Counted from the first letter of the stretch, positions 25,477 to 61,855 are shown. The stretch is 64,000 nucleotides of DNA from an uncultured Anaerolinea sp. (GCA_964626845.1 CAZVGR010000014.1:12570-76569), one strand, 5' to 3'. The notes: generated by a model from the letters alone, not told the origin. Translations and numbers: made by a program.

Positions 25477-25609
25477 CAGAGACCCGGTGAATAGAATTCA
25501 CCGTCTGACAACACCAAGGCCCCTCAGGGCCTGCCTCCCCAGCGGCTGAGGCCGCTTCGTCCTGTTCAGCCAGGGATTTCCAATCCCTGACGTTTGTACC
25601 GAGCAAACC

Positions 25610-34236: not shown

Positions 34237-36162
34237 GGCGTCTACTTCTTTGTTCTCGCCGCCGTTCTCTGCCTCCAACTCCATGATCTTCTGCGCCACC
34301 TGCTCGATAGCCACGCGCTGCTTGCGGTAGAGGTCAGACTCGCTCATGGCCAGCCGGTCGGCAATCTCGCGCACCCGCTTGCCCTGGATGAACTTCAACT
34401 CCAGGATGTTGTAGAGCAGCCACTCAGAGGCGGTCATCTGGCGCTGGCCTTCGGGCCGCAGCCCCTCGATGGCTTGAGCCAGCACCGACCGCAGCCCCTT
34501 GGTGGGACTGCCCTCCTCCTCGGCGGCCCTATTCACCACCTTCAGGCGCAGCAGCGGGCTATCGGTCAGCTTCGGGCCGCCCCAATAGTGGCTGAGCGCG
34601 TCCTTGACCCACTTGGTGAACTCTAACTGATAGACGATGCTGTCGGTCTCGGCTGGCTGCTGCAAGGGAGGCGTGCCGGGATAGGGCACCACACTGCGCC
34701 AGCGCTGCACCCGTTCGATCTGGGGCATGATCTCCATCACGGCCATGAAGACGCCCTGCTGCAAGAGCCGGTCCTCCAGCGCGGTTTCGGCGCGCTGCAC
34801 CAGCTCATCCACCACGTCGTACTCGGCAGGGGACGGGCCTGGTTGGCCGGGCCGGGCGGCCACGCCCAACAGGCCCAGGGCGTTTTCCCGCCCGCTGGTG
34901 CGCAGCGACCACACCCAATAGCCGTTGTATTGCACGCTGTCACCTGCGCTGTGGCTGCGATCGCGGTTGGTAGCCTCTTCCAGGACCTCCTGCCAGCCGG
35001 GATAGCGGCGGAATTCGTTTATCAGGTCGGCCGGGCCACAGGCAGCCTCAACCAACAGTTCCTCTCCCGCCTGAACGGCCACAAAGCCGCCCGGCACGCG
35101 CAGATATTCGCACATAGCCACCAGCACGTTCTCCAGAAACTGGCGCAGGTCGCTGGAGGTCAACAGCCGGCGGTCCAGCTCGCGGATGGCCATCAACTCC
35201 TGCTGGTCGTGGCTGTAGATCATGCGGTCGATGGTGGGCTTGACCAGCTCGATCAGCAGTTGCAGCAACACAATCAACGCCACCACCGTCAGCAATACAA
35301 CCGACTCGCGCGGCAGGCCCAGGATGCTCTCCACCTTGGGGACGGTCAGGATGGCGCCCACCACCAGGATGCCCAGCAGCGGCCCGCGGATCAAAAAGAC
35401 GATCAAGCCCCGCTTGACAACGCGGTCGGGGCTGAGCACGCCGTAGTAGGCCACGCTGTAGGTCATCACGATCAACATAACCGCCACGCCGATGTTGCCG
35501 ATCAGCGTCAGGAGCGAAACAAAGGCTCGCCCCGGATCCACGGTAAAGCCAGCCAACACCAGATAAGGAAAGACCCCCAGGCCAGGAGCGATGAAGGACA
35601 CCACCAGATAGGTCATGCGGCGCCGTGAGGCGGGGGTCAGGCAGCGTTGGCGCACCCGGTAGGTGTTGTACAGGCCATAGCCTGACGCCAGGAAGAAATA
35701 GATGACGAAGACCGGAAAGAAGCGCCCAGGGTCGAGATAGTAGAGGTTGTTCTCGCCGCTGGCCGATTGCACGATCAAATCGGTGAACAGAGCGAGCAGG
35801 GCGATGACGCCGCTGATAATGTAGCTGAACATCACCAGGCGAGTACGCCGCCGCGAGACAGCGTTGGTAGTTTGCAGCAGCGCATCGGACAGATCAAAGT
35901 ATGCGGCTGGCACAAAAGGGATGCCCAGCCACTGCAGGCGCAGCCACAGCTCAGTCTGCTCCGGCGCCACCAGATAGAGCAGCACGTCTCCGGTGTAGAC
36001 CACCATCACGCAGGCCAGCAGAATGGCAAAGGCCCTGCCCACCCGGTTGCGCACATTGTAGGCCACCACATAAGCCAACAGCGAAAAGGCCAGAATGGCA
36101 ACTGTGACTGACAGCAGCAGATTGGCCAGGTCGAGGATGGCTGACCAAGAAGGGAGTACCAT
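34231..36162 (-). CDS. Membrane-bound one-component regulator: N-terminal 7TM module + GAF-like domain + C-terminal sigma-70 region-4/LuxR-like HTH
   Basis: Multi-TM N-half. C-terminal '[33 protein letters not shown]'. Start taken at ATG 36162; ORF extends to 36243. Confidence 0.55.
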
Positions 36163-46379: not shown

Positions 46380-46419
46380 AAATGAATGTATCGCTCGGGC
46401 CGGTCTCCGACCGAGCCCG

Positions 46420-47136
46420 TCAGCGCAGTGTCAGCAAAAGCATCATCATCTGCGCTGCCGAACGACGCCGGCCCAGGTCGGGTGCTTGCGTTGTCAGAAT
46501 CTCCTGTAACTTCTTGTGCGCATTGAAGAGCCGCGACTTGACGGTGCCGATGTTGATCTGCAAGGCGTCTGCGATCTCCTCATACGAAAACTCCTGGCCG
46601 TAGCGCATCAGCACCACTTCACGATGCACGTCGCTCAACTGGTTGACCGCGGCCCACAGGCGGACTTTGTCCTCCTGACGCAGGGCCAGGTCCTCTGGAT
46701 TGCCAGCCACGTGGCCGGTCATCGAGCCGTCAGACGGCTCAGCCTCGGCCGGCATGCGCTCCAGGCGCTCTTCCATCTCGTCCCAGTCGGCCGAGGGCAG
46801 GCGTTTTTTGCGCAGCCGCGTCTTGCAGCGGTTGACCGTCACCCGGTAGACCCAGGTCTCGAAGCGGGCCGCGCCGTCCACGTCATAGCTTCTCAGGCCG
46901 CGCAGCACGTCCATGAAAGTCTCCTGCGTGGCCTCTTCGGCGTCGTCGCTGTTGCGCAACGTCATGTAGGCCACGCGGTACACATAGTCCTTGTAGCGCT
47001 CGAACAGCGCGTCAAAGGCCGCTGGCTGGCCGGCCTGGTGACGCCTGATCAATTCCTCGGTGGACACACCGTAGGTTGGGGTCCTGCTGCGCCCAGCCGG
47101 GACTGCGCTGGCAGGGTTCGCTACATCGGAAGGCAC
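46420..47136 (-). CDS. RNA polymerase ECF-type sigma-70 factor
   Basis: Region 2 (FDALFERYKDYVYRVAYMTL...ETFM) and region 4 (FSYEEIADALQINIGTVKSRL). GTG start with AAGGA SD. Confidence 0.8.
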   Translation of the reverse strand: MPSDVANPASAVPAGRSRTPTYGVSTEELIRRHQAGQPAAFDALFERYKDYVYRVAYMTLRNSDDAEEATQETFMDVLRGLRSYDVDGAARFETWVYRVTVNRCKTRLRKKRLPSADWDEMEERLERMPAEAEPSDGSMTGHVAGNPEDLALRQEDKVRLWAAVNQLSDVHREVVLMRYGQEFSYEEIADALQINIGTVKSRLFNAHKKLQEILTTQAPDLGRRRSAAQMMMLLLTLR

Positions 47137-48720: not shown

Positions 48721-49062
48721 TTATGACTGCGGGTCGAACTGGAAGACGCGCAACTCCTGGTCGCAGCGGCAGGCCCTGGCGATGCGCGCGGCCCACGCGA
48801 CCGCCTCCTCGCGCGAGGGCAGTTCGAGCACGGTGAAGCCGCCGTCGAGCGGGGGCGCCCACGGATAGCCGCCCTCGGCGACCGCGCCGTCGGCCGAGAC
48901 GAGCACAGGTGGCACGTCCGCGTCGATGCCGCCGCCGAAGACGTAGACGCCGGCAGCCTTTGCCTCATCGATCACGGCATGTGCGTCACGGCCCACCGCC
49001 TCCCACTCGCCGTCGGGCACGTCCATCGCCGCGCTGGGAAAGGAAATCAGGTACTTGGACAT
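48721..49062 (-). CDS. YciI-like (YCII-related) family protein
   Basis: 113 aa. DGPF-type domain pattern. Confidence 0.6.
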   Translation of the reverse strand: MSKYLISFPSAAMDVPDGEWEAVGRDAHAVIDEAKAAGVYVFGGGIDADVPPVLVSADGAVAEGGYPWAPPLDGGFTVLELPSREEAVAWAARIARACRCDQELRVFQFDPQS

Positions 49063-49117
49063 TGGTGCTCCTTCTGTTGGGGATTATGACCGCGAGTTCG
49101 TCGCCTGCAAGCACTCG

Positions 49118-49651
49118 TTAGCCCGGCCGATTGGACAATTGGTCATCTTCTCTGTGACCCGGACACCCCGCGGTTTGGAGTACCATTGTGACGACTTCCT
49201 GCAAAGCGATGCTGGCGTCAATCTCATGATCTGCAACCTTTCGCAACAAAGGCTCAATCTCGGAGATGTTGCTCAGGACAGCGGCTGCTTCTGCGGGGTC
49301 CTTCCCGTATGGATTCCCCGTTCGCGTGGTCAGCCGGTCGAGGAGTACTTCGGCAGGCGCACTTAGCAGGATCACATGATCGAACTGCGGCAGGAACTCT
49401 CCCATATTCGCTGCACAACCACTCACGAAGAGCCAGTCGGCAGCCTCGTCTGCGAGAAGATCCTGAACCGCGTCCTCCCTCCACACCCAGTCCTTGCCAA
49501 CACGGGATCCCGTCGGATTGCCGGCGATGTCGACCCAGTGCGACCACTCTTCTGAGTCGAGATCCACCGCCATGTACCCGAATTCACCGAGTTTCTGCGT
49601 GATCGATGATTTTCCGGTTCCGGACATGCCGGTCAGTAGAACTCGGATCAT
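49118..49651 (-). CDS. P-loop NTPase (small kinase-like AAA family ATPase)
   Basis: Walker A 'LTGMSGTGKSS'. 177 aa. Lower-GC context. Confidence 0.55.
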   Translation of the reverse strand: MIRVLLTGMSGTGKSSITQKLGEFGYMAVDLDSEEWSHWVDIAGNPTGSRVGKDWVWREDAVQDLLADEAADWLFVSGCAANMGEFLPQFDHVILLSAPAEVLLDRLTTRTGNPYGKDPAEAAAVLSNISEIEPLLRKVADHEIDASIALQEVVTMVLQTAGCPGHREDDQLSNRPG

Positions 49652-49855
49652 GAAGCCCTATCCTCCTTGTGATGTCGGTGCCCAAGCGCCTAAACCGGCT
49701 AACGGATCAAGAGATTCATGTGGTGCGCTGGCAGCCAAGAGACAACTCGATTGGCAAAGCCAGCCACCATCATGTACCGTCGTTCAGGGTGCAGAGCGCC
49801 GGTTCTCTTCCTAACATTAGCCGTCCTGTTCGGTTTACGGCTTCGTTCACCGGTG

Positions 49856-50287
49856 TTATTGGTTGGCGACGATTCCGTAGACGTAGATACCATCTTCAGG
49901 CCCGTTCTTGAACCGGTTAGCAACCCGTTGCACGGGCCACATGACCGCTCCGCTGGCCAAGACAACGGCGATGTTCATTTCGGCTTCTGGATCATTGTCG
50001 TCCCCTTGCCACTTCCCGTTGTAAGCACGAATGATGACCTCGCCAACGTATGAGCCGATTGCGAAGATGCGGGAGCCAAGCTGTTCCGCAAGCAGACCCC
50101 CGGGGATGGCTTGTCCGTTTTGCGCATGTTCATCGAAAAACCGATCGATTTCGCGAAGGCTCTCAATCGAAAAATCGGCGTGGTAGCCGGAACTGGAAAG
50201 CGCCTTGGCGATCCACTCTGCCCCTTTTCGGGCGTCATCGATAACCGCCGGCACTTGTGCATGTCGCTTCCGTAACCAGTCAAACAT
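49856..50287 (-). CDS. Hypothetical protein
   Basis: Start ATG 50287 (MFDWLRK); ORF to 50344. No family recognised. Confidence 0.35.
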   Translation of the reverse strand: MFDWLRKRHAQVPAVIDDARKGAEWIAKALSSSGYHADFSIESLREIDRFFDEHAQNGQAIPGGLLAEQLGSRIFAIGSYVGEVIIRAYNGKWQGDDNDPEAEMNIAVVLASGAVMWPVQRVANRFKNGPEDGIYVYGIVANQ

Positions 50288-50539
50288 GCGGGTACCTCTT
50301 ACCAGCGAACGGAATGAGAAATCTACGGGGCATGCTGTCACCAAGCAGGCGCCTCTTCATGCAAAGCCAGTCATCATTAAAGATCGGCGGTTGTTCAGAA
50401 TGAATACCGCCGCACGAAGGCAAGTGTAACATTGCGGGCCAAAAAGGTCAACAGCAATCCCGCCTGGCAAGCGCACAGGACGAGGTGTGATTTCCCAATC
50501 CGCCCGCCATGGGCAATCAGCCATCAACAAGCGCCGGCC

Positions 50540-51050
50540 TCACGGCTCACCTGACTCTTCTTCTGCCTGCAGCCAGGCCAGTGTCTCGGCCTGGGCTTGC
50601 TCAAACGAGACGACCGGTTGATAACCCAGCGCGCGCGCGGCCTTATCGTGCGAGAAGAAGAAGTCAACGCAGGTGGAAGCGACCACATAGCGCGTGAGCG
50701 TTGGGGTCGACGGGCCGATTCCCCGCCGGGCGGCCGTTTCCATCACGATCGCCAGCCAATAGGCCACACGGTAGGGGATGCGCCTCCTCGCCGGCGGGAA
50801 CCCGAACGCGGCCAGGTAAGGTGTGAAGAAATCGAAGAAGTTCCCTGCCGGGTGGTCGCCAATGAAGTACGCCTGCCCGGCGGCTGGGCCAGCCAGCGCC
50901 TCAGCGGCCAGGATGTGGGCATGCACTACGTTGGCCACGTACACAATTGTCAAAGGCGCGAACGCTCACGCCGCGGTTTTTCAGCTCCGAAGCCAGGGCA
51001 GCGCCAAGAAATCCCGCCCCACCTATGACCAGTGCGTTTTGCATCAAGTT
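50540..51050 (-). pseudogene. Disrupted NAD-dependent epimerase/3-beta-hydroxysteroid dehydrogenase gene (N-terminal Rossmann segment fused out of frame to a C-terminal fragment)
   Basis: Minus-strand 'MQNALVIGGAGFLGAALASELKNRGVSVRAFD' at 51046-50951 is in a different frame from the 137-aa C-terminal ORF 50540..50953. About 150 codons of the central domain are missing. Confidence 0.55.
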
Positions 51051-51051
51051 C

Positions 51052-51396
51052 CTATCGATTACCTTTGGCCCGGTTGTGGGTAGTGCAGAGCATCTGGCAG
51101 TTCCTGGCTGTACTTTCGCCGCCTTTGCTCCATGCCGAGACGTGGTCGGCGTCCATTTCGTTGAACTTGTAGATTCTGCTCTTGTTCGCGGTGTCCCCGA
51201 CCGCGCAGAGCGGGCAGTTGGACTTGCCCTTGCCCTGGGCTGCTTGCGTCTGCTGAGTGTAGGCGACTTGCTTTACCTTGTCATCGAATACCCGAACTGC
51301 CAATAACTTCTTGTTTGCCGACGCGGCGTGCAGGCCTTGGTTCAACGACTTGCTTTCCATGGCGTGATTGGCTTCCTTGGGTTTCTTTGATGGCAT
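51052..51396 (-). CDS. HNH endonuclease
   Basis: Motif 'CPLC...DHV.AWSKGG...NCQMLCTTHNRAKGN'. Confidence 0.75.
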   Translation of the reverse strand: MPSKKPKEANHAMESKSLNQGLHAASANKKLLAVRVFDDKVKQVAYTQQTQAAQGKGKSNCPLCAVGDTANKSRIYKFNEMDADHVSAWSKGGESTARNCQMLCTTHNRAKGNR

Positions 51397-51537
51397 TTCG
51401 GGCTAATGTTCCGCTTCAGCCGCGGCGCGCAGCGCCGTCCACTGCATGCTGTTGTTAGCCGGCCTTCCGAGGCCTGTAGTTGCTTTCCTAGTCTCTCCGG
51501 TCATTTGTTCCCATTTCAGAGCGTTGAGCGCGTAGCG

Positions 51538-52590
51538 TCAGTCAGAAACATCATCGGGCATGTCTTCTTGATCGGCATCGACAAGCTCGTCGGTACGCTC
51601 AATTCGGAGCTTATCGTTGCCAACCTCAAACTCGACGTGCCCCCCGTCGGCCATCCGCACCGTCATCGGCGGCAAAGGGTCGGACGCGTCATTCAGTAGC
51701 GCCGCAAGCGGTTCTCGGACGTATCGTTCCAGAAACACGCTCATCACAGGTCCGGCCTTGGACTCAAGGTGCTGCCAAGCTGAGTCGCCAACGAACGCAT
51801 GCCCGCCCACGTCGTGGAACGCCTTAACCAAATCTGTAAGCTTAGGGTTGGGGGTTGGATCAAGTACAACAAGCACGGGAGTGAACCCCGACCCAACACA
51901 GTCAATTGGGAACTGAAGCTCTTCCCCCCACCGGCCTTGGCCCGATGCTGCGATTGTCACACGAATCTTGAATTCGTAAGCCAACTTCTGCTTCACGCAA
52001 TCGACCTGGCGGCCCTTCCCTCGGTCGCCCTGCCGTTTCACGGGGCTTCTCTTCGCACTTACCGGCGTGCCGCCGATGGCATTTGCGAGAATCGGCTCGA
52101 ACAGGTATCCAGTCTCCTGAGCCGCGCGATTGTCCAAGTCGTAAAGCCACTTGCGCCAGTACAGCATTCCGGCGAGTGCCGGGGATGGCAGGCTACCGAA
52201 CTGAAGCAATCCGCGCGGACCCACCTGGTCGAAGGTTGGGAAGGCTTGTCGCTGCAGGATTTGTTCGTACTTTAGGCGGCTCTTGTGCAGTGTTGCGAGG
52301 CAGGAGAAGTACGTGTCTGAGTCCGGCTTGAGGGAGAACAACTTTGCTGCCAAGTCCTCAAATGGAATCCTCGCCAACGTGAGAGAGGAAACCGGCCAAG
52401 TTTCGAAGAACGGCGGCAGGTCTTGAGGTACCTCGGGGACTTGCGAGATGAGATTAAGGTCTTTGACTACGACGCCGCAGAGATAGGCGCAGACCTCTTC
52501 AGAAAGAGGCACTGCCATCTCGCTGTTGCCAACGTTGCGTGCCTTTTCAATAAGCGTCTTCTGAGATAGTGTGAGTTCGTAGTTTGTCAT
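51538..52590 (-). CDS. Putative type II restriction endonuclease (partner of the adjacent C5-methyltransferase)
   Basis: 350 aa, no family recognised. Start codon overlaps the methyltransferase stop. Low-GC island. Confidence 0.45.
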   Translation of the reverse strand: MTNYELTLSQKTLIEKARNVGNSEMAVPLSEEVCAYLCGVVVKDLNLISQVPEVPQDLPPFFETWPVSSLTLARIPFEDLAAKLFSLKPDSDTYFSCLATLHKSRLKYEQILQRQAFPTFDQVGPRGLLQFGSLPSPALAGMLYWRKWLYDLDNRAAQETGYLFEPILANAIGGTPVSAKRSPVKRQGDRGKGRQVDCVKQKLAYEFKIRVTIAASGQGRWGEELQFPIDCVGSGFTPVLVVLDPTPNPKLTDLVKAFHDVGGHAFVGDSAWQHLESKAGPVMSVFLERYVREPLAALLNDASDPLPPMTVRMADGGHVEFEVGNDKLRIERTDELVDADQEDMPDDVSD

Positions 52591-53843
52591 TAGTCCCGTC
52601 CTACTTGCGCGGTCTCGGTGTCCGCGAACAGCGTGAGCTGTTGGGACCGAATGATGGCGCGGTAGCTGCTCTCGACCGCATCGACGGTCTTCTGAAGCGC
52701 TGGGCTCATGCCGTTTGAGTTCGTGGGCACAAAACTCTTAAGCCCTGCGTCCGATCTCCGATCTGTAATCTCGCGGAAGGCATGTGCAAGATGAGCGGCA
52801 ATTGCATTTGCAAAACGAGGCGGTACGGCATTGCCAATAAGCAGGGCTCGCTGCGCCTGAGTACCAGCAAATTCAAAGTCATCGGGAAACGTCTGGAGTC
52901 GCGCACACTCCCGAAGTGTCAGATTGCGATGTGCAGTCGGATGTACGAACTCGGAAGTGGCCCCGCTGGTGATCGCCTTTGACGGCAGGTCCGGATCTAG
53001 TCGCCGTAGTCCTGAAGGTGCGCCCCCCCTGCGTTCTGTTGGGGTCCCATCCATCACCCTCCTGAAGGCGCGGCGGCGGTAGGTTTCGTGCCAGAGTTCC
53101 TCTGGAATGTCCTTCATGGTCTTGCCGATGCCGAGTGCCTCGAAACGAAGACGGTCCATCTCATTCGGCGGACGAGAGAAATGATCGGTAACGACCGCGC
53201 TTTCTGGATCGCATGCTGCATTTGGAAGGCCATCGAGAGCCTTGGCGACGCTGTCGCACAATGGAAGCTTACCCGCCACGAGATCTGCCCCTGGCGCGCC
53301 TGTGGCGCAGTGGGTCGGCTCCGGAAACCCGGGGTCCCATCCTAAACCTGCAATTGCCAACACCCGTTTGCGATGTTGTGGAACCCCGTAGTTAGCGGCG
53401 TTCACTTTGCGAAGGTGAATGCAGTAGCCAGCACTTACAAGAGGATCGAGCAGATCGGTAACCCAACGGCCTCCCTCACCAGTCAGGAAGCCTTCCACGT
53501 TTTCAAAAACAAACGCTTTTGGGCGATGTCTTGCCACGAGGTGAGCGAAGACCGCCACCAGCGTGTTGCGGGCATCACCAGGCTTCCGCAGGCCTGCTGA
53601 CGAGAACCCCTGACAGGGAGGACCACCGATGATGATGTCGCATGGGGGCAGCACCGTGTCCCAGTTGAGCTTCACATTTTCTACATGGTCCCCGATGTTC
53701 CTCCGGTACGTTTCTACCGCAGGCAAGAACGCATCGGCAGCCCAGACGATACTGAAGCCCTGAGCACGAAATCCTAACCCCAGCCCGCCTGCACCGCAGA
53801 AGAGGTCAGCGACTGTGATTGCTGGCCGCATTTCGAAATCCAA
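52590..53843 (-). CDS. DNA (cytosine-5)-methyltransferase
   Basis: Motifs I FCGAGG, IV GGPPCQGFS, VI ENV, VIII QHRKRV, IX/X RLQTFPDDF and GNAVPP. TTG start after a GGAG SD. Confidence 0.85.
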   Translation of the reverse strand: MDFEMRPAITVADLFCGAGGLGLGFRAQGFSIVWAADAFLPAVETYRRNIGDHVENVKLNWDTVLPPCDIIIGGPPCQGFSSAGLRKPGDARNTLVAVFAHLVARHRPKAFVFENVEGFLTGEGGRWVTDLLDPLVSAGYCIHLRKVNAANYGVPQHRKRVLAIAGLGWDPGFPEPTHCATGAPGADLVAGKLPLCDSVAKALDGLPNAACDPESAVVTDHFSRPPNEMDRLRFEALGIGKTMKDIPEELWHETYRRRAFRRVMDGTPTERRGGAPSGLRRLDPDLPSKAITSGATSEFVHPTAHRNLTLRECARLQTFPDDFEFAGTQAQRALLIGNAVPPRFANAIAAHLAHAFREITDRRSDAGLKSFVPTNSNGMSPALQKTVDAVESSYRAIIRSQQLTLFADTETAQVGRD

Positions 53844-53902
53844 CTTTTACTCCATCACGCTAAGTTAGGCAGAAACGCCATCTCAGTTGAGTTCCGGCTA
53901 CC

Positions 53903-54207
53903 GTAACTGCTCAGCCGGCCGGTCAGAAACCGGGTTTTTCTCGTTGGGCAATGATTTCTGAGTTTGCAAACGCATTGCTCGGGGCTATGATAGCCGCTTC
54001 CGCAGCAAAAACCCGGTTTCTCTAAGGAGCTGTTTAAAAAGCCCGGCAGCGTCGGAATCAGAGGTTGAAACCATCTGGCTGAAAGTACGAAGCGGCCTCA
54101 GCCGCTGGATTCCAGGCCCTGAGGGGCCTTCGTGCTGTCAGCCGGTGGGTTTCCAACCACCGATCCGGGGCTTTTCAAACAGCCTCTAAGCCCAGCCTGA
54201 GCAGTAA
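53903..54207. mobile_element. Left copy of a ~140-bp MITE (TIR TAACTGCTCAG.../...CTGAGCAGTAA), interrupted by a nested MITE
   Basis: Reverse-complement match (1 mismatch) to 60237-60376, split by the 54026-54183 insertion. Confidence 0.7.
54026..54183. mobile_element. Nested 158-bp MITE with ~16-bp TIRs (GCTGTTTAAAAAGCCC / GGGGCTTTTCAAACAGC) and 7-bp target-site duplication CTCTAAG
   Basis: CTCTAAG at 54019-54025 and 54184-54190. The right MITE copy at 60237-60376 has a single uninterrupted CTCTAAG. Confidence 0.7.
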
Positions 54208-54354
54208 CCAGCTACCTAATAATTCGCGGGAATGCCGGCCGTCATATCCCGCTATTGCTCCATCGCCTACCGCTGACGGCCAGTCCATAGTGGCCGCCAT
54301 TGTACCATTTCACCCGTGGGAGGGCAAAAGGGCGCGTTCCGGGCTGCCCAGGGC

Positions 54355-54390
54355 GCGAGAGATGCCATTTCTGCGGAAGAAATGGCATCT
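54355..54390. repeat. Palindrome GAGATGCCATTTCT-gcggaag-AGAAATGGCATCTC (GAGATGACATTTCT family) just downstream of the LTD gene stop
   Basis: Direct inspection. Confidence 0.8.
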
Positions 54391-54410
54391 CTTCGCGTCA
54401 CGCCACCACC

Positions 54411-57400
54411 CTACCGGATTGACAACCACGCATCCCACAGAGTCGCCAGCGCCGGCGGCCGCACGGTCAGCACCGCACCAGTGAGGGGCAGGAAGACGGG
54501 CGCGCGGTTCCAGGCCGTGTCGTCCTGCACGCCGTTGCTGTAGGCTGTCCCGTTGGCGCGGCCGGCCGCGGCAGCCCGGCCGCGCTGCAAGTCGGCCTCG
54601 CGGCGCGGCAGCAGGCGATAGCCGCTCTCGGTCTGGCTGACCACGCCCACCACCGTCCACACCTCGCCGATGTTGACGTAGGGCCGGCGGATGCCGGTCG
54701 CAGGCCGGATGGTGATGCGCGCCTCGCCGCTGCCGTCGTCCAGATAGAGGGTGGTTTCCTTCCAGAAGCCGGTGATGGGGCCGCTGAGCTGCACCAGCCG
54801 GCCCTCGTTGGCCTCGGCCACCTCGCCCGTGCGGATAGGCAGCGGCGCAGGCGGCGCGGCCGGCTGCATGGTCTTGATGTCGTCGATGCGCACCAGGCTG
54901 ATCTGCCGCTCCTCGTAGAAGGTGCCCAGCCGGCCGTTGACTCGCACCCACTGCCCCTCGCTGAGCGGCGGCCACTGGGCCGAACGCAGGAAGACCCGCA
55001 TGCCGCCCGTGGCATCCTGGATGTAGATCTCCTGGTCGTCAAAGACGTTGGGCAGCGCCGTCACCTGGCCCTCCAGCGTCAGCCGCGTGCCGTCGGGCAG
55101 GCTGCGGGCGTGGGCGATGGTCGCCAGGTCGAAGTTGAAGCGGTCGTAGGGCTGTCCACTGCCCGACCCGCCGCCGCTACTGCTTCCACCGCCGCCGCCC
55201 GATCCGCCGCCGCTGTTGGGGTCGGCCGCGTTGGCCTGGCCTGGCGTTTCGATGCAGTCGCGGGACCACTCGCCCACGCCATCGGGCAGTCGGCACCAGG
55301 ATTGGTCATAGCCGGAGAAGACATTGTAGCTCATGCTGTCGGCCAGACTATTGTCCGGGTAGAGCAAGCGCACCTGTTCGCTGCTGGCGTCCAGCGCCAA
55401 GCCGCTCTGAGCGCGGTAGATCACCAGATAGCCCTGGGCCGGCAGCACAAGACCAGAGGGCAGGATGTAGGTCCGGTCTGGCTCATGGCTGGCTGGCTGG
55501 CCATCAGCCAGCTTCCAACCGGCCAGATCGACTGGCTCCTCGCCCAGATTTGTCAACTCGATCCACTCGTCCAGATAGCTTGGGACGCCGTTGCCGTCCC
55601 AGTCCACGTTCTGCGGCGAGGGCAGCACCTCGTTCAGCCGCACGGTGGTGGCCACCGGCGTCGGCGTCAGTTGCGGCGTCGCGGTGGGCGTCGGCGTGGG
55701 CGTGCCGCCGGGCGTGTTGCTGCCGCCGGGCGTGGGCGGGTAGCTGCGCGTCCACTCTGCGCCGCCGTCCACCGTCTTACTGGCGGCCTGATCGTCGCGG
55801 CTGCTGCTGTACTGGGTCTCCTCCACCACCAGGCCATCGGGCCGCAGCAGCCGCACCCAGTCGCCGTCGTTGTTCAGGGCGATGCCGGTCTGGCTGCGGA
55901 AGAAGAGCAGGAAGCCGCGGGCCGGGATGGTCGCGCCGGGCGGCAGGGTGTAGGGCGCTGAGCCGCCGCTCGCCACGTCGTCCAACTGCCAGCCGCTCAG
56001 ATCGACCGCGAAGTCGTTGGCGTTGTATAGCTCGATGTACTCATCGTCCTGGTTGGCTGCGCCGTCGCCGTTCCAATCGGAGGCGGGGTCGGGCATGTAC
56101 TCGTTCAGGCCGACGCCATCAGGATAGACGCCGGGCGTAGCCGTCAGCGTGGCAGTCGGTGTTGGCGTCGGGGTCGCGGCCTGGTTGGACGCGCCGGGCG
56201 AGGGCGGGTAGGCCATCGTCCACTGGTCGCCGCCGTCCACCGTCTTGCTGTAACTGACGTCGGCCGGCGCGGCCGTGTAGCTGTGGTTCTCCACCTCCAC
56301 GCCGTCGGGCCGCAGCAGCCGCACGCTGTCGCCGCCGCTGTTGTTGAGGGCGATGGCCGTGTCCCGGCTCCACAGGGTTAGGAAGCCTTGCGCCTCGATC
56401 ACCGCGCCGGCCGGCAAGGTGTAGGGCGACGACCCACCGCCCGCCACATCGTCCACCTGCCAACCGCTTAAGTCGACGGCGAAGTCGTTGGCGTTGTAGA
56501 GCTCGATGTACTCGTCGTTGGCGTCGCCCACGATGCCATCGCCGTTCCAGTCGGCCTCGGGGTTGGGCATGAACTCGTTGAGCACAATGCCATCAGGGTA
56601 GACCACGGGCGTACCGGTGGGCGTGGCGGTCGGGGTAGGCGTGGCCGTAGGGGTGTTGGCAGCCTGGTTGGACGCGCCGGGCGAGGGTGGGTAGCTCATC
56701 GTCCATTCGTCGCCGCCATCTGTGGTCTTGCTGTAGCTGACGTCGGCCGGCGCGGCTGTGTAGGGGTGGTTCTCCACCTCCACACCGTCGGGCCGCAGCA
56801 GCCGCACGCTGTCGCCGCCGCTGTTGTTGAGGGCGATGTTCGTGTCGCGGCTCCAGAACACCAGGAAACCTTGCGCCTCGATCACCGCGCCAGCCGGCAA
56901 GGTATAGGGGGACGAGCCGCCGCCGGCGACGTCGTCTACCTGCCAGCCGCTCAGGTCGACGGCAAAATCGTTGGCGTTGTAGAGCTCAATGTACTCGTCG
57001 TTGGCGTCGCCCCGGATGCCGTCTTCGTTCCAGTCAGCCTCGGGATTGGGCATGAACTCGTTGAGCACGATGCCTTCGGGATAGTCTACCGGCAGCGGGG
57101 TTGGCGTGGGCGTCGGCGTGCCGGCCGGCTGGTTGGATGCGCCAGGCGAGGGCGGATAGTCCGTCGTCCACTGGTCGCCGCCGTCCACGGTCTTGCTGTA
57201 GCTCACATCGGCCGGCGCGGCCGTGTAGCTGTGGCTCTCCACCTCCACACCGTCGGGGCGCAGCAAGCGCACGCTGTCGCCGCCGCTGTTGTTGAGAGCG
57301 ATGTTTGTGTCCCGGCTCCAGAACACCAGGAAGCCTTGCGCCTCGATCACCGCGCCAGCAGGCAAGGTATAGGGGGACGAGCCGCCGTTGGCGATGTCAT

Positions 57401-60173
57401 CCAACCGCCAGCCGCTCAGGTTGACGGGGAAGTCGTTGGCGTTGTACAGCTCGATGTACTCGTCGTTGGCGTCGCCAATGATGCCATCTTCGTTCCAGTC
57501 GGCCTCCGGGTTGGGCATGAACTCGTTGAGCACGATGCCGTCAGGGTAGACCACGGGCGTGCCGGTGGGCGTGGCCGTCGGGGTAGGCGCGGCCGTGGGA
57601 GTGTTGGCGGGCCGGTTGGGCGCGCCGGGCGAAGGCGGATAACTGCGCGTCCACTGGCTACCGCCGTCCACAGTCTTGCTGTAAGCCTCATCGTCGCGGC
57701 TGCTGGGATATTCGACCTGCTCGACGACTGCCCCATCAGGCCGCAGCAGGCGCACCCAGTCGCCGTCGTTGTTGAGCGCAATGCCGCTCTGGCTGCGAAA
57801 AACCAGCAGAAAGCCGCGCGCCTCAATGATTGTGCCGGTGGGCAGGATGTAAGGCGGGCTGCCGCTGGGCGTGAAGGGCGAGCGAAGCTGGCCAAAGCCA
57901 TCGTCTACGTCGTCCAGGCGCCAGCCGCTGAGATCGACGGCAAAGTCGTTGGCGTTGTACAGCTCGATATATTCGTCGTTCAGATCAGCCGTGCCGTTGC
58001 CGTCCCAATCGGAGGCGGGGTCGGGCATGAATTCGTTGAGGCTGATGCCATCAGGATAGACGCCGGGGGTGGCTGTTGGCGTCGCAGTCGGCGTTGGGGC
58101 CGGTTGGTTGGATGCGCCAGGCGAGGGCGGGTGGGTCATCGTCCACTGGTCGCCGCCATCCTCTGTTTTGCTGTAGGCCACGTCAGCCGGCGCGGCGGTG
58201 TAGCTGTGGCTCTCCACCTCCACGCCGTCGGGCGTCAGCAGACGCGCTGCATCGCCGCCGCTGTTGTTGAGGGCGATGCGCGTGTCCCGGCTCCAGAACA
58301 CCAGGAAGCCCTGCGCTTCGATCACTGTGCCGGCCGGCAGGGTGTAGGGGGACGAGCCGCCGCTGGCGATGTCGTCCAGTTGCCAGCCGCTCAGGTCCAC
58401 AGCGAAGTCGTTGGCGTTGTACAGCTCGATGTACTCGTCGTTAGTGTCCCCCAGGATGCCGTCGTCGTTCCAGTCGGCCTCCGGGTTAGGCATAAACTCG
58501 TTCAGGCTGACGCCTTCCGGGTAGGGCGTAGGCGAGGCGGCGGGCGTCGTTGCAGATGTGGGCGATGGCGTCGCCGTTGGCGTGGGCGTAGGTGTGGCCG
58601 TTGGCGTAATCGTGGGCGTGGCTGTCCAGGCCGGCGGCTGGTTGGATGCGCCAGGCGACGGCGGGTAGGCCATGGTCCATTCTGCGCCGCCGTCCACGGT
58701 CTTACTGTAACTCACGTCAGCCGGCGCAGCCGTGTAGAAGTGGCTTTCGACCTCCACCCCGTCCGGCCGCAGCAGCCGCGCCCAGTCGCCGCCGCTGTTG
58801 TTGAGCGCGATGCCGGTGTCCCGGCTCCACAGCACCAGATGGGACTGCGACTCGATCCAGGCGCCGGCCGGCAGGGTGTAGGGCGCTGATCCGCCGTTAG
58901 CCACGTCGTCCAGCATCCACCCACCGATGTCCACGGCAAAGTCGTTGGCGTTGTAGATCTCGATGTACTCGTCGTTGCCGTCGCCCAGAATGCCGTCGTT
59001 GTTCCAGTCGGCCTCCGGATTGGGCATGAACTCGTTCAGGCTGAGGCCGGTGGGATAGACGGCCGGGGTGGCCGTGTGGGTGGGGGTTGGGGGCGGCGCG
59101 GGTTGGTTGGAAGCGCCCGGCGAGGGCGGGTAGGTCATGGTCCAATCGCTGCCGCCATCCACCGTTTTGCTGTAGGCCACGTCAGCCGGCGCAGCGGTGT
59201 AGCTGTAGCTCTCGACCTCAACACCGTCGGGCCGCAGCAGACGCACCATGTCGCCGCCGCTGTTGTTGAGCGCAATGCGAGTATCCCGGCTCCACAGCGC
59301 CAGGAAGCCATGCGCCTGGATCGTCGTGCCAGCAGGCAAGGTGTAAGGCGACGAGCCGCCGTTGGGTATGTCATCCACGCGCCAGCCGCCCAAATCAACG
59401 GCAAAATCGTTGGGATTATACAGCTCGATGTACTCGTCGTTGGCGTCGCCGAAAATGCCGTCGTCGTTCCAGTCGGCCTCGGGGTTGGGCATGAACTCGT
59501 TGAGGTGGATGACAAGCGGCGCGGGGGTGGGCGAAGGAGTCGCAGTGGGCGTGGGCGTGGCGGTGGCTGGCCCTGGCGGCTGATTGGCGGCGCCTGGCGA
59601 GGGTGGGTAATCAGCCGTCCACTGGTTGCCGCCATCGACTGTTTTGCTGAAGGCCCCATCCGCTTGGGTCTGGGTGTAGCTGAAGCTCTCAACAGGGACA
59701 TCGTCCGGCGTCAACAGGCGCACCGCGCCGCTGCTGTCGTCCAACTCAAGGCCTGTTTGGACACCCCACAGCACCAAATGACGCTGCGCGCGCAGCACTG
59801 TACCAGGAGGCAGCGCATAGGGCGGCAAGCCGCTGCTCTCGCCAGCGTCCAGCTTCCACCCGCTGATGTCCACGTCGAAAGGGTTGGCGTTATAAAGCTC
59901 GATGTATTCGTCGTTGTTGCCGCCCGTCACCCCATCGCCGTTCCAGTCATACACCGGCTGTGGCATTAACTCGTTGAGGACAACGCCGCCAGGATAGCTG
60001 CTCTGAGCAGCCGCAGGCAGCACCCCTGCGCCACGCGCGATCTGTGGGCCGAGAACGAGCAGCAGAACACTGCCGGCTGTCAGCAGGCCGGCGATCCAGG
60101 AACGATACGATGCACGACAAGACGACATGATCCCACCTCCACAAAGCTGTCTGGCAGGCCGATCCCACGACAC
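54411..60173 (-). CDS. Secreted giant protein with ten tandem lamin-tail-domain (LTD) repeats, Thr/Pro linkers, a Gly/Ser-rich linker and a C-terminal OB-fold-like domain
   Basis: 1920 aa. Signal peptide. Ten copies of 'LNEFMPNPEADWN.DG..GD.NDEYIELYNANDFAVDLSGW.LDD...GGSSPYTLPAG' (LTD/PF00932-like), each followed by a PTPTATP linker. ~450-bp near-identical DNA periodicity. Confidence 0.8.
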   Translation of the reverse strand: MSWDRPARQLCGGGIMSSCRASYRSWIAGLLTAGSVLLLVLGPQIARGAGVLPAAAQSSYPGGVVLNELMPQPVYDWNGDGVTGGNNDEYIELYNANPFDVDISGWKLDAGESSGLPPYALPPGTVLRAQRHLVLWGVQTGLELDDSSGAVRLLTPDDVPVESFSYTQTQADGAFSKTVDGGNQWTADYPPSPGAANQPPGPATATPTPTATPSPTPAPLVIHLNEFMPNPEADWNDDGIFGDANDEYIELYNPNDFAVDLGGWRVDDIPNGGSSPYTLPAGTTIQAHGFLALWSRDTRIALNNSGGDMVRLLRPDGVEVESYSYTAAPADVAYSKTVDGGSDWTMTYPPSPGASNQPAPPPTPTHTATPAVYPTGLSLNEFMPNPEADWNNDGILGDGNDEYIEIYNANDFAVDIGGWMLDDVANGGSAPYTLPAGAWIESQSHLVLWSRDTGIALNNSGGDWARLLRPDGVEVESHFYTAAPADVSYSKTVDGGAEWTMAYPPSPGASNQPPAWTATPTITPTATPTPTPTATPSPTSATTPAASPTPYPEGVSLNEFMPNPEADWNDDGILGDTNDEYIELYNANDFAVDLSGWQLDDIASGGSSPYTLPAGTVIEAQGFLVFWSRDTRIALNNSGGDAARLLTPDGVEVESHSYTAAPADVAYSKTEDGGDQWTMTHPPSPGASNQPAPTPTATPTATPGVYPDGISLNEFMPDPASDWDGNGTADLNDEYIELYNANDFAVDLSGWRLDDVDDGFGQLRSPFTPSGSPPYILPTGTIIEARGFLLVFRSQSGIALNNDGDWVRLLRPDGAVVEQVEYPSSRDDEAYSKTVDGGSQWTRSYPPSPGAPNRPANTPTAAPTPTATPTGTPVVYPDGIVLNEFMPNPEADWNEDGIIGDANDEYIELYNANDFPVNLSGWRLDDIANGGSSPYTLPAGAVIEAQGFLVFWSRDTNIALNNSGGDSVRLLRPDGVEVESHSYTAAPADVSYSKTVDGGDQWTTDYPPSPGASNQPAGTPTPTPTPLPVDYPEGIVLNEFMPNPEADWNEDGIRGDANDEYIELYNANDFAVDLSGWQVDDVAGGGSSPYTLPAGAVIEAQGFLVFWSRDTNIALNNSGGDSVRLLRPDGVEVENHPYTAAPADVSYSKTTDGGDEWTMSYPPSPGASNQAANTPTATPTPTATPTGTPVVYPDGIVLNEFMPNPEADWNGDGIVGDANDEYIELYNANDFAVDLSGWQVDDVAGGGSSPYTLPAGAVIEAQGFLTLWSRDTAIALNNSGGDSVRLLRPDGVEVENHSYTAAPADVSYSKTVDGGDQWTMAYPPSPGASNQAATPTPTPTATLTATPGVYPDGVGLNEYMPDPASDWNGDGAANQDDEYIELYNANDFAVDLSGWQLDDVASGGSAPYTLPPGATIPARGFLLFFRSQTGIALNNDGDWVRLLRPDGLVVEETQYSSSRDDQAASKTVDGGAEWTRSYPPTPGGSNTPGGTPTPTPTATPQLTPTPVATTVRLNEVLPSPQNVDWDGNGVPSYLDEWIELTNLGEEPVDLAGWKLADGQPASHEPDRTYILPSGLVLPAQGYLVIYRAQSGLALDASSEQVRLLYPDNSLADSMSYNVFSGYDQSWCRLPDGVGEWSRDCIETPGQANAADPNSGGGSGGGGGSSSGGGSGSGQPYDRFNFDLATIAHARSLPDGTRLTLEGQVTALPNVFDDQEIYIQDATGGMRVFLRSAQWPPLSEGQWVRVNGRLGTFYEERQISLVRIDDIKTMQPAAPPAPLPIRTGEVAEANEGRLVQLSGPITGFWKETTLYLDDGSGEARITIRPATGIRRPYVNIGEVWTVVGVVSQTESGYRLLPRREADLQRGRAAAAGRANGTAYSNGVQDDTAWNRAPVFLPLTGAVLTVRPPALATLWDAWLSIR

Positions 60174-60236
60174 CGCTTCGCATCGGCTGGCCAGCTCGGT
60201 TGTTACGGAACCCCGCCGAGAAACATTCGGCGTTTG

Positions 60237-60376
60237 TTACTGCTCAGGCTGGGCTTAGAGAAACCGGGTTTTTGCTGCGGAAGCGGCTATCATAGCCCCG
60301 AGCAATGCGTTTGCAAGCTCAGAAATCATTGCCCAACGAGAAAAACCCGGTTTCTGACCGGCCGGCTGAGCAGTTA
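60237..60376. mobile_element. Right copy of the ~140-bp MITE in inverted orientation, with 9-bp target-site duplication CGGCGTTTG
   Basis: CGGCGTTTG directly flanks both ends (60228-60236 and 60378-60386). Internal hairpins (gcaatg...cattgc; gctatgatagc). Confidence 0.7.
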
Positions 60377-60439
60377 CCGGCGTTTGTTGTAATGGGGCTG
60401 ACGCCGGCGCTGCTATGGGGCGCCGATTCCAGCCTGAGC

Positions 60440-60485
60440 GGAGAAACAAAAACGGCTGCGGGCCTTCCAGGCCGCCCGCAGCCGT
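60440..60485 (-). terminator. Rho-independent terminator (stem CGGCTGCGGGCGGCC/GGCCCGCAGCCG followed by TTTTTGTTT on the minus strand)
   Basis: GC-rich hairpin plus U-tract immediately after the 60497 stop. Confidence 0.65.
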
Positions 60486-60496
60486 CTCACCAACCT

Positions 60497-61693
60497 CTAT
60501 GCTTGCTTGCCGTCCTTGGGCAGGTCGCCCAGGGCGCTTTCCAGGGAGCCCAGCCAGCGCTGCGCCTCTTGCAGGCGGTGCGCGGCGTAGGTCTCTTGCA
60601 GCCGCCAGAGCTGGCGGATCAGCCCACGCAATGTTTCGATGTCCTTACGCAGCGGCGGGAAGCCCACAGCCAGGTCGCGGTTGACCTTGTCCTGCTCGGC
60701 CCAGCGGTGATCCCACTCCAGGGTCTGCTTCTTCCAGCGCTTCTCGTCCTCGCTCAGGAACGCGTCCAGCTCCTTGCGCTGGCGCTCCTCGGCCAGGCGC
60801 TGCAGCTCGGCCACCTGGTGCTGGTCGCGGCGGATGCTCTCCTCGAAGCCTTGCAAGCTCTGCAAGATGCGCCGGCTGTCGTTGATGTGGGTATCAAAGC
60901 CCTGAACCCGCTTCTGCTGCTCGGCCATCAGATCGCGCTGTTGCTCAAACTCCTGCTGCCAGTTGGCCAGTTGGCGGGTGCGCTCTACGTCTGCCAGCTT
61001 CTGGCTCTCGACAAAGCTGGCCACCTCGTTGCGCATCTGATCGGGCACAGGCTGCACTGCGGCTACGGCCCGTTCCACCCGTTGAATGGCAGCTTCCAAA
61101 GGCGGCACCTTGCCAAACACGGCCTCGCTGCGCTTGAACAACTCCACGGTCTCCTGTTGCAACTGAGCAATCCGCTTGTTGTCCTGGGCGCGCTGCTCCA
61201 TGATAAAGGGCAGGCTGCGGGTACGCTCGTCGATGTCCTTGTTGATGTTGTTGACCTGCTGGCGCACCGCCATCACAATTTCACTCAGCCGTTGGTCTTC
61301 CGCCTTGCGCTGCTGCAGTTCCTCTTCGATGCGGCTGAAGCGCGGCAGCTCCTTGCGTACTTCTGACAGGCCGCGCGCGGCCGCCTCGCGCTCCGCGCCG
61401 CGCAGCCGCTCGCTCTCACGCTGGTCGGCCAGGCGCTGCTCCTCCTGGCGTTGCAGCATCAGTACCAGCTCATTCTTGAGCTGCTGCATGGCATCATCCA
61501 CCTGGCTGAAACGCACCAGTTGGGCCTGGGTGCTGGCCAACTGGCCCTCCAACTCCTGGATGCGCCGGGACTGCTCGACAATTTCAGTCGCCTGGCCCTC
61601 GATGCGCTGTTGCAGCTTGGCGATTTCCCCGCGGCCACGCCGATGTTCTTCGTCCAGCCAGGTAACCATCTGGCTCAGTTGATCTATATCCAT
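60497..61693 (-). CDS. Hypothetical coiled-coil protein
   Basis: 398 aa. Highly charged E/Q/R-rich heptad-like sequence. No family recognised. Confidence 0.5.
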   Translation of the reverse strand: MDIDQLSQMVTWLDEEHRRGRGEIAKLQQRIEGQATEIVEQSRRIQELEGQLASTQAQLVRFSQVDDAMQQLKNELVLMLQRQEEQRLADQRESERLRGAEREAAARGLSEVRKELPRFSRIEEELQQRKAEDQRLSEIVMAVRQQVNNINKDIDERTRSLPFIMEQRAQDNKRIAQLQQETVELFKRSEAVFGKVPPLEAAIQRVERAVAAVQPVPDQMRNEVASFVESQKLADVERTRQLANWQQEFEQQRDLMAEQQKRVQGFDTHINDSRRILQSLQGFEESIRRDQHQVAELQRLAEERQRKELDAFLSEDEKRWKKQTLEWDHRWAEQDKVNRDLAVGFPPLRKDIETLRGLIRQLWRLQETYAAHRLQEAQRWLGSLESALGDLPKDGKQA

Positions 61694-61855
61694 GCCTATC
61701 CTCGTCTGGTAATCTGGGGCGGCATTATAGCATGGCTCGCCGCAACGCGCAATGTGCAGATTCTAGCCCACGCAAAGGCGCAAAGACCGCAAAGCAGAGC
61801 CGATTTCTTGGCGCTCTTAGCGTCTTGGCGTGAGCATGGCGCCGTACTGCTGCGA

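Follow-up and report, generated by a model that had tools for sequence, protein, structure and literature searches.

A pair of inverted MITE copies around a giant lamin-tail gene in Anaerolinea DNA

The LTD locus and its MITE copies

The locus lies in the right part of the window, i.e., the whole 64-kb stretch of Anaerolinea DNA analysed here, and is dominated by a giant gene with lamin-tail (LTD) domains, which is bracketed by two inverted copies of a MITE. The LTD gene holds tandem units of ~483 bp, its start region is conserved in relatives, and its product is a large, repetitive and probably surface-exposed protein, with 10 LTD domains in the window compared to 9 in a relative. On the left, the bracket adjoins a restriction-modification module that has a 94.6%-identical counterpart on a contig of unrelated context (L113). 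This homology stops at 53884, 19 bp from the left MITE, and the GC content is 0.57-0.60 over 49-54 kb, compared to 0.63-0.69 on either side. On the right, the MITE is inserted between the terminator-like hairpin of an upstream 398-aa gene and the conserved LTD leader. The features are as follows (window coordinates):

51486-53884, minus strand: mobile type II restriction-modification module (C5 methylase, 52590-53843; ApaLI-like endonuclease, 51538-52590)
53895-53902, no strand: left-copy flanking repeat CGGCTACC, with its partner CAGCTACC at 54209-54216 (7/8 match)
53903-54026, plus strand: positions 1-124 of the left MITE copy, from End A; differs from the right copy at 53963 only
53964-53991, plus strand: sigma-70-like TTGCAA-16-TATGAT in the left copy, a consensus match only; directed antisense into the LTD 3' end
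54020-54026, no strand: left half of the nested-insertion duplication CTCTAAG (right half, 54184-54190), recognised by comparison with the uninterrupted right copy
54027-54183, no strand: palindromic 157-bp element nested in the left copy, from a second repeat family, terminal inverted repeats GCTGTTTrAAAAGCCC
54184-54208, plus strand: final 25 bp of the left MITE copy, with End B; opens with the second CTCTAAG and is 100% complementary to 60236-60260
54358-54392, no strand: perfect 15-bp-stem hairpin 3' of the LTD gene; synteny with a relative (L105) ends here
54411-60128, minus strand: LTD giant gene, 1905 aa, 10 LTD domains; probable start ATG at 60128 after GGAGGTGGGA
60228-60235, no strand: right-copy target-site duplication, inner half CGGCGTTT; found a single time, as AACCGCCG on the minus strand, at each of seven MITE-free orthologous loci
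60236-60377, minus strand: right MITE copy, complete, 142 bp, GTTAC...GTTAC; in family orientation (minus strand) GTAACTGCTCAGCC...GGCTGAGCAGTAAC, End B toward the LTD gene
60289-60316, minus strand: sigma-70-like TTGCAA-16-TATGAT in the right copy, a consensus match only; points toward the LTD gene, sense
60378-60385, no strand: right-copy target-site duplication, outer half CGGCGTTT
60445-60483, minus strand: intrinsic-terminator-like hairpin and T-run of the upstream 398-aa gene, read from the sequence and conserved in relatives

By BLAST and pattern search, the 64-kb window contains exactly two MITE copies, and shuffled versions contain none. The inverted repeat of the right copy extends over 53903-54208, where an inverted-repeat search pairs 53903-54026 with 60254-60377 (124 nt, 99% complementary) and 54184-54208 with 60236-60260 (25 nt, 100%). 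The sole mismatch between the copies is 53963 T vs. 60317 G (plus strand), and this near-identity (1 mismatch in 142) could be due to gene conversion instead of recent transposition. The first-pass annotation had described an inverted ~140-bp pair with one mismatch, which encloses the whole LTD gene with its leader and 3' hairpin and adjoins a lower-GC restriction-modification island; this description holds, with the unit now measured as 142 bp. The 9-bp target-site duplication that it had assigned to the right copy exists as well, but is 8 bp long, in keeping with the family rule: CGGCGTTT lies flush with both element ends, and the supposed extra C is the element's own final base. At the left copy, which has no empty-site comparator, the flanks CGGCTACC and CAGCTACC are alike at 7 of 8 positions.

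The left copy had likewise been recognised in two pieces, which is correct, but the 165-bp interruption had not been recognised as a second, nested mobile element. The gap at 54027-54183 holds another, palindromic element of 157 bp, which inserted there and generated a 7-bp duplication (CTCTAAG, 54020-54026 and 54184-54190); the uninterrupted right copy acts as its empty site. The centre of the nested element contains two hairpins, GCGGCCTCAGCCGC and GGCCCTGAGGGGCC, and its predicted fold energy is -83 kcal/mol. Related modules are found elsewhere in the window (25499-25573) and at two loci of the close relative CH3 (L031 and L037).

The MITE family and its relation to IS66-type elements

The 142-bp element is a true MITE and belongs to a multi-copy family. 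A family scan yields at least 97 matching stretches, among them duplication-bearing copies, in five Anaerolineae/Caldilineales assemblies; the complete SSC4 chromosome has at least 24 element matches and CH3 at least 83. The window's own genome is absent among the family matches listed; two copies were seen in its 64 kb, and a metagenome scan with the window-specific MITE interior gave no match. Family members are ~141 bp long and uniform in size (140-142 bp in 20/24 end-pairs), and they align with clear polarity and a mean column identity of 88%. Terminal inverted repeats, GTAACTGCTCAG, are accompanied by a second inverted pair, AGAAACCGGGTTTTT; the ends read GT(A/T)ACTGCTCAG / CTGAGCAGT(A/T)AC, and the subterminal inverted pair matches at 15/15 positions. 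All open reading frames that touch the 142-bp element are at most 64 aa long and run into the flanks, and none independent of the flanks was found in the MITE.

Insertion of the family into its targets is documented in two ways. First, the 8-bp duplication is perfect in 16/27 family copies and matches at seven or more positions in 20/27, compared to 0/27 for a displaced control at the same cutoff. Second, empty sites exist. At seven orthologous loci (L105-L112), a 396-aa gene is followed by the LTD gene without an intervening MITE, and the target is present a single time. The reciprocal case is provided by CH3, in which a copy with the duplication GGTTTTTC/GGTTTTTT lies at the equivalent of ~34233-34254, where the window has none. 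The earlier designation as a MITE with terminal inverted repeats is thereby confirmed, as are copies elsewhere in genomes and an empty site in sister genomes. The family, common in Anaerolineae, is previously undescribed: no description of such a family for Anaerolineae/Caldilineales was found in the literature, and it appears to be the first one defined for this group.

Several features point to the parentage of the family. The terminal 12-14 nt of the MITE and its 8-bp duplication match single-ORF insertion sequences of the IS66 family (ISBst12 group), an origin that the first-pass annotation had missed. Insertion sequences of this type include ISDge4 of Deinococcus geothermalis, whose published repeats are GTAACTGCTCAGCA / GTGACTACTCAGCA and whose direct repeat has 8 bp (PMC12898284), an element on Geobacillus kaustophilus pHTA426 (end GTAACTATTCAGCCC, duplication 8/8), a D. 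wulumuqiensis plasmid element (end GTAACTGCTCAGCA), a B. thuringiensis element (end GTAACTACTCAGCT), and a 1485-bp element in six copies (end GTAACTACTCAGG), with perfect 8-bp duplications in 6/6; the same terminal 12-mer occurs on three further contigs. The MITE ends begin with GTAACTnCTCAG, as in the ISBst12 group, and agree with the D. wulumuqiensis element at 12/12 positions, with the published ISDge4 repeat at 13/14, and with the Geobacillus and B. thuringiensis elements at 12/14. The likeness thus consists of a terminal GTAACT(G/A)CTCAG(C) flush with the ends (12-13/14) and a target duplication of 8 bp, which for the insertion sequences is seen as a direct repeat in 6/6 of L121-L126, at 8/8 in L115, and in ISDge4 as published.

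This likeness stops after ~14 nt. Elements of the ISBst12 group are 1.4-1.6 kb long and encode a transposase with DUF6444, zf-IS66 and DDE_Tnp_IS66 domains, whereas the MITE has 141 bp and no ORF. Moreover, the conserved subterminal repeat AGAAACCGGGTTTTT is a feature of the MITE without counterpart in any of the ISBst12-type insertion sequences examined. Judged by its termini and duplication length, the MITE family is a putative derivative of IS66/ISBst12-type insertion sequences. Since neither an ISBst12-type transposase (in the window and ~0.6 Mb of examined Anaerolineae DNA) nor a full-length element with the MITE ends (in the window or the Anaerolineae loci examined) was found, we infer that the MITE would be mobilised in trans by a transposase of this type, which, as the termini suggest, these genomes have yet to reveal.

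Two insertions beside the LTD gene

The bracket is very probably the result of two copies of one non-autonomous DNA transposon, the ~141-bp MITE, having inserted independently into both spacers beside the LTD gene. Each copy has its own duplication, and in the MITE-free relatives (seven loci) the LTD gene occupies the same place beside the 396-aa gene in the same orientation, which together argue for two independent insertions. Such proximity is not exceptional: at 16 of the 97 family loci listed, two or more copies lie within 8 kb of each other, in both relative orientations, and the geometry is therefore as expected of chance insertion into adjacent intergenic spacers. A DDE transposase of the ISBst12 group, encoded elsewhere in the genome, would bind the GTAACTGCTCAG ends, make 8-bp staggered cuts in the target, and integrate the MITE. 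The left copy was later struck by the second small palindromic mobile element, which generated the 7-bp duplication. The bracket would then be a by-product of insertions into neighbouring spacers, with the LTD segment now in its ancestral orientation. The 124-bp and 25-bp inverted homologies might support rare RecA-dependent inversion, but there is no sign that it takes place or serves a function. The MITE pair is ordinary mobile-DNA litter, and nothing shows a gene-flipping switch.

Alternative roles of the bracket

Small elements of this kind are known from other phyla. The Correia elements of Neisseria and the pneumococcal RUP are non-coding, ~100-160 bp long, intergenic and high-copy, have terminal inverted repeats, fold into long hairpins, and sometimes carry promoter-like or terminator-like sequence. 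The window MITE resembles them in small size, lack of coding capacity, terminal inverted repeats, intergenic position, high copy number and long-hairpin fold; it differs in its parental family, its phylum, and its 8-bp duplication, which in Correia elements and RUP is TA.

The two copies might have been exapted as a regulatory module, with the right copy shielding the LTD gene from upstream read-through by the End-A hairpin and T-run and supplying a new promoter, and the left copy driving antisense transcription into the LTD 3' end. Both copies indeed carry TTGCAA-16-TATGAT pointing inward, End A has a terminator-like CCGGTCAGAAACCGG followed by GTTTTT, four promoter-like sites occur in the region compared to 0.7 expected (three of them within the MITE copies), and the right copy has the terminator of the upstream gene on one side and the conserved LTD leader on the other. 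However, these motifs are consensus matches only, in a group whose promoter rules are poorly known, and the End-A hairpin has only 5 bp. The family consensus at the promoter-like site reads GTGCAA...CATGAC, so the window hexamers are not conserved and the promoter is not a property of the family. Furthermore, MITE-free relatives, too, express the LTD gene from this spacer, and a native promoter is thereby implied. No evidence of regulatory use was found for the window MITE, and exaptation of the pair is unlikely.

The inverted copies might also serve as recombination substrates, such that the 6.3-kb LTD segment flips and expression becomes phase-variable. The bracketing homology (124 bp with one mismatch, plus 25 bp) is compatible with this, as the 124-bp stretch exceeds the minimal processing segment of RecA-dependent recombination, and large repetitive proteins that are probably surface-exposed, here with 10 vs. 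9 domains, are of a kind whose genes are often variable. RecA-mediated inversion is physically possible but unsupported. Invertible switches of the fim, hin and shufflon type, which the locus resembles in that inverted repeats bracket a segment, have short specific repeats and an adjacent site-specific recombinase and flip promoters or gene segments. At the LTD locus, by contrast, copies of a transposon make up the repeats, the ORFs tested (42-64 kb) yielded neither an invertase nor a tyrosine recombinase, and the orientation is the ancestral one, equal to that of the MITE-free relatives. A net inversion would have separated the halves of each duplication; both duplications are intact, which indicates a net un-inverted state. 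Since the two copies are arranged symmetrically and turn one and the same end, with one and the same promoter-like motif, towards the LTD gene, inversion would alter nothing that the MITEs supply. Pairs at short distance, inverted as well as direct, are frequent among family members. The only contigs from the source metagenomes (SRR13617034-44) are short-read ones that break off 28 nt into the repeat and are hence uninformative on orientation. An invertible cassette is accordingly very improbable. The first-pass annotation had seen a geometry that would allow inversion, but no support was obtained for an inverting segment or a functional bracket. A broader version is quite unlikely, too, namely that the window copies form a subfamily with a working inward promoter and an outer terminator hairpin, which rewires LTD transcription (sense from the right, antisense from the left), and/or that the 6.3-kb segment flips by homologous recombination at a population-relevant frequency; if so, no dedicated recombinase would be needed for phase variation of a giant surface-repeat gene.

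A structured non-coding RNA gene or a REP-like element spread by recombination would fit the strikingly uniform size (140-142 bp), the interior conserved across species, and the stable predicted hairpin of -63 kcal/mol. This non-transposon reading is extremely improbable, as the consensus fold is the inverted-repeat hairpin alone, with almost no covariation (2/34 pairs), no Rfam match was obtained for the MITE, and a DDE transposon group has identical termini; this reading is already contradicted by the precise 8-bp duplications and the empty sites.

MITE pairs that flank cargo are known, e.g., the MITE-flanked integrons in Acinetobacter, and the window geometry, with two copies of one MITE around a gene-sized segment, would be compatible with such a composite transposon that carried the LTD gene into the site; however, Acinetobacter-type composites have a single duplication around the whole unit, which shows joint mobilisation, whereas in the window each copy has its own duplication, the outer flanks are unlike (CGGCTACC vs. 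CGGCGTTT), and the cargo is ancestral, sitting at the same place beside the 396-aa gene in seven MITE-free relatives, so that this reading is already contradicted and its probability is negligible.

For the LTD gene, the preferred reading of two unrelated insertions is a caution, in that a neat inverted bracket is best read neither as a switch nor as a mobile cassette. In practical terms, presence/absence polymorphisms of the MITE are usable as strain markers, and the MITE is exactly where short-read assemblies of these organisms break, with CH3 contigs ending 65-69 nt inside.

Two inverted MITE copies and a nested insertion

The giant lamin-tail-domain (LTD) gene (54411-60128, minus strand) lies between two MITE copies, and the inverted repeat pair claimed in the first-pass annotation is real: a repeat search of the window recovers the arms 53903-54026/60254-60377 (124 nt, 99% complementary) and 54184-54208/60236-60260 (25 nt, 100% complementary). 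The features are as follows.

53903-54208, plus strand: left MITE copy, with flanks CGGCTACC / CAGCTACC matching at 7/8 positions
54027-54183: nested insertion in the left copy, a near-perfect palindrome of 157 bp (-83 kcal/mol) that has terminal inverted repeats of its own
60236-60377, minus strand: right MITE copy, 142 bp, GTTAC...GTTAC, boundaries from reading the ends
60228-60235 and 60378-60385: right-copy target duplication CGGCGTTT, a perfect 8 bp, flush with the ends

The right-copy duplication had been read as 9 bp with an extra C; it is 8 bp, and the C is the element's last base. For the left copy the earlier inverted match stands, and the stretch that had been skipped without interpretation (54027-54183) is a nested second element: CTCTAAG is duplicated at its borders and single in the intact right copy. 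The window contains the 38-nt MITE core exactly twice, shuffled sequences never contain it, and neither BLAST nor the family profile finds a third copy within the 64 kb.

The 157-bp insertion, with its 7-bp duplication in the left MITE, is a copy of a second repeat family, which also occurs at window 25499-25573 and in CH3 (L031 7167-7282; L037 3814-3888). Its module, ...CTGGCTGAmAGTACGAAGCsGCCTCAGCsGCTGG..., is often a palindromic dimer. A metagenome scan with its core gave 0 matches, and relatives were found only locally (elsewhere in the window and in CH3).

A MITE family with ISBst12-like ends

The element is a textbook MITE, which upholds the earlier interpretation and sharpens it by the 8-bp duplication, the nested second element, an empty site in relatives and a putative ISBst12/IS66 ancestry. 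When one genome per species was scanned with the end motif ACTGCTCAG-N10/11-AGAAACCGGGTTTTT, at least 97 stretches matched, and all those listed come from Anaerolineae/Caldilineales assemblies; among the matches listed, CH3 holds 70 loci, the complete chromosome of SSC4 (CP059258.1) 19, clx_CAG2 six, and two other assemblies one each. The matches listed do not include the window's own genome. Paired ends are 140-142 bp apart in 20/24 cases, the remaining four being shorter deletion derivatives. The MITE has a definite polarity in the profile search. When 24 full copies are aligned in one orientation, the mean column identity is 88%, and the window's copies have the most divergent interior. Of 27 copies, 16 carry identical 8-mers on their two sides and 20 agree at seven or more positions; in a control that shifts the right flank by 20 nt, no copy reaches seven. 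No ORF independent of the flanks is present in the MITE, a tRNA scan found none, and Rfam returned nothing over 53500-60800 at E≤1. A structured-RNA reading was rejected: the RNAalifold consensus contains only the long hairpin of the inverted ends, with 2/34 pairs covarying.

The same profile search shows that contigs of CH3 typically break off 65-69 nt into the MITE (dozens, e.g., L002, L010, L020, L027), the hallmark of a k=70 assembly interrupted by a high-copy repeat; the MITE is therefore a leading reason why that short-read assembly is fragmented. Scans of metagenomes (with the MITE interior specific to the window) and of viruses each gave 0 matches, and plasmid and phage collections held no MITE match. 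The family seems to be undescribed in the literature and belongs to a well-known kind of element. Internal-deletion derivatives of 90-113 bp keep 8-bp duplications (L003 6801-6890; L057 309-417; L069 6455-6559; L097 177-289; L024 5423-5612), and at one locus a partial copy adjoins a full one in tandem.

Deinococcus geothermalis ISDge4, which belongs to the single-ORF ISBst12 group of IS66, encodes a single 449-aa transposase and has inverted repeats GTGACTACTCAGCA and GTAACTGCTCAGCA and an 8-bp direct repeat (PMC12898284). The MITE ends in GTAACTGCTCAGCC and GTTACTGCTCAGGC. Similar termini recur elsewhere: the 1635-bp IS66-type element of Geobacillus pHTA426, whose protein carries DUF6444, zf-IS66 and DDE_Tnp_IS66 domains, has ends GTATCTATTCAGCCC / GTAACTATTCAGCCC and a perfect 8-bp duplication, GACGAGTT; a plasmid element of D. 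wulumuqiensis begins GTAACTGCTCAGCA; and both ends of a B. thuringiensis element carry GTAACTACTCAGCT. A 1485-bp element present in six copies in one assembly always ends GTAACTACTCAGG, with perfect 8-bp duplications in 6/6, and the same terminal 12-mer occurs on three further metagenomic contigs. On the basis of termini and duplication length, the MITE can be placed with the ISBst12 group, to whose elements its similarity does not extend beyond ~14 nt.

An Anaerolineae parent presumably shares the invariant subterminal AGAAACCGGGTTTTT and would be a 1.4-1.7-kb element ending GTAACTGCTCAG-N10-AGAAACCGGGTTTTT. Homologues of the Deinococcus transposase all have the terminal 12-mer and none the subterminal motif; those with a named source, together with the P0349 contigs, are all Deinococcus or Deinococcus-like. 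By tblastn, no ISBst12-type transposase was found in the window or the compared Anaerolineae loci, no end-pairs 0.4-6 kb apart were found except two adjacent MITEs, and an all-against-all search gave no long repeats. The ORFs beside solo ends in SSC4 and DTUCFX11 were rejected as transposases, encoding ClpB-like, hydrolase or TPR proteins. No long element with these ends was found in the DNA compared; we infer that the MITE would be mobilised in trans by an ISBst12-type transposase.

Empty sites and the bracket around the LTD gene

Upstream of LTD lies a 398-aa gene whose orthologues are 90-94% identical. In 7/7 orthologue contigs compared, the LTD orthologue comes next in the same orientation, the MITE is absent, and the right-copy target is single (AACCGCCG vs AAACGCCG in the window, minus strand). 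These loci represent the right copy's empty site exactly, the MITE-less state for which a comparison with sister genomes had been proposed. The reciprocal case is found in CH3, whose orthologous genes share 85-90% identity with those of the window: a copy with the duplication GGTTTTTC/GGTTTTTT occupies the spacer that corresponds to window ~34233-34254, a site without a copy in the window. The MITE is absent from ~110 kb of the closest relatives and two restriction-modification-module contigs (L105-L114). For the left copy there is no comparator for an empty site, because the closest homologues of the methylase beside it lie in unrelated contexts.

The bracket around LTD is probably not meaningful. 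Regulatory exaptation of the copies has a low probability: a consensus scan finds an inward-pointing TTGCAA-16-TATGAT in both copies and a weak hairpin with a T-run at the end facing away from LTD, and the right copy separates the conserved LTD leader (ribosome-binding site GGAGGTGGGA, ATG at 60128) from the conserved terminator of the upstream gene (60445-60483), but conservation in the family consensus does not extend to the promoter-like hexamers. The suggestion that the LTD segment inverts by homologous recombination between the copies is unsupported and unnecessary. On physical grounds, RecA-mediated inversion between homologies of 124 + 25 bp is plausible; however, it would swap the inner flanks and split both target duplications, and since these are intact and LTD is oriented as in the MITE-free relatives, the present state is the original one for the 6.3-kb segment. 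Moreover, no recombinase or transposase was found among tested ORFs at 42-64 kb, and the same MITE end faces the gene on both sides, so that an inversion would alter nothing the MITEs contribute. Close pairs are also common in the family, with at least two copies within 8 kb at 16/97 loci among the matches listed, in both relative orientations. The source metagenomes (SRR13617034-44), where the organism is present at 100% identity, yield only contigs that stop 28 nt inside the repeat. A composite transposon carrying LTD is excluded by the separate duplication of each copy, the non-matching outer flanks and the ancestral presence of LTD at the site.

The LTD gene encodes 10 lamin-tail domains (1905 aa), compared with nine (1740 aa) in the closest relative (L105 11596-16818). 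It is built of tandem units of ~483 bp (73% matches), and the repeat number therefore varies between lineages. Among the relatives' loci, gyrB of L112 (2402-6028) encodes 1208 aa with intein-splicing and LAGLIDADG domains, whereas in L105 (4199-6130) and L111 (4191-6122) it encodes 643 aa and no intein domains.

The restriction-modification island and neighbouring repeats

Beside the left copy, a 417-aa ORF encodes a C5 cytosine methylase; the adjacent 350-aa ORF has no Pfam match in a direct scan and is 88% identical to a protein of L114 with a precomputed RE_ApaLI match. Window 51486-53884 shares 94.6% DNA identity with a JGI contig, where the module lies among hydrogenase genes, and 81% with another, where it lies among glycosyltransferases. 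The segment is a mobile restriction-modification module. Its homology stops 19 bp from the left MITE, and the bracket had correctly been placed at the edge of the island. Synteny with L105 ends at 54358, and the downstream genes of L105 are absent from the window. GC falls to 0.57-0.60 over 49-54 kb. The low-GC island, taken here as 49000-53884, holds, besides the ApaLI-like pair, other ORFs:

49118-49651: AAA_18/shikimate-kinase-like ORF
50540-50953: C-terminal fragment of a 3-beta-HSD/OleD-like reductase, probably a pseudogene remnant
51052-51396: HNH endonuclease ORF

A third short palindromic intergenic repeat, GCGCAAAGACGCCAAGAACGCCAAGAG...CTTGGCGGTCTTTGCGCC, occurs at these sites:

Window 61766-61830: spacer between the 398-aa gene and an EPSP-synthase-like gene
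L105 11191-11330; L112 11207-11311 and 9809-9930; L064 780-844: other sites

In L105, L108 and L112 a copy lies immediately past the stop codon of the 396-aa gene; the window has none at this position. At 42087-47136, an ECF-type sigma factor gene (46420-47136) adjoins the gene of a 1430-aa protein with an N-terminal zf-HC2 anti-sigma motif as well as alpha-2-macroglobulin MG2, bait-region and A2M domains.
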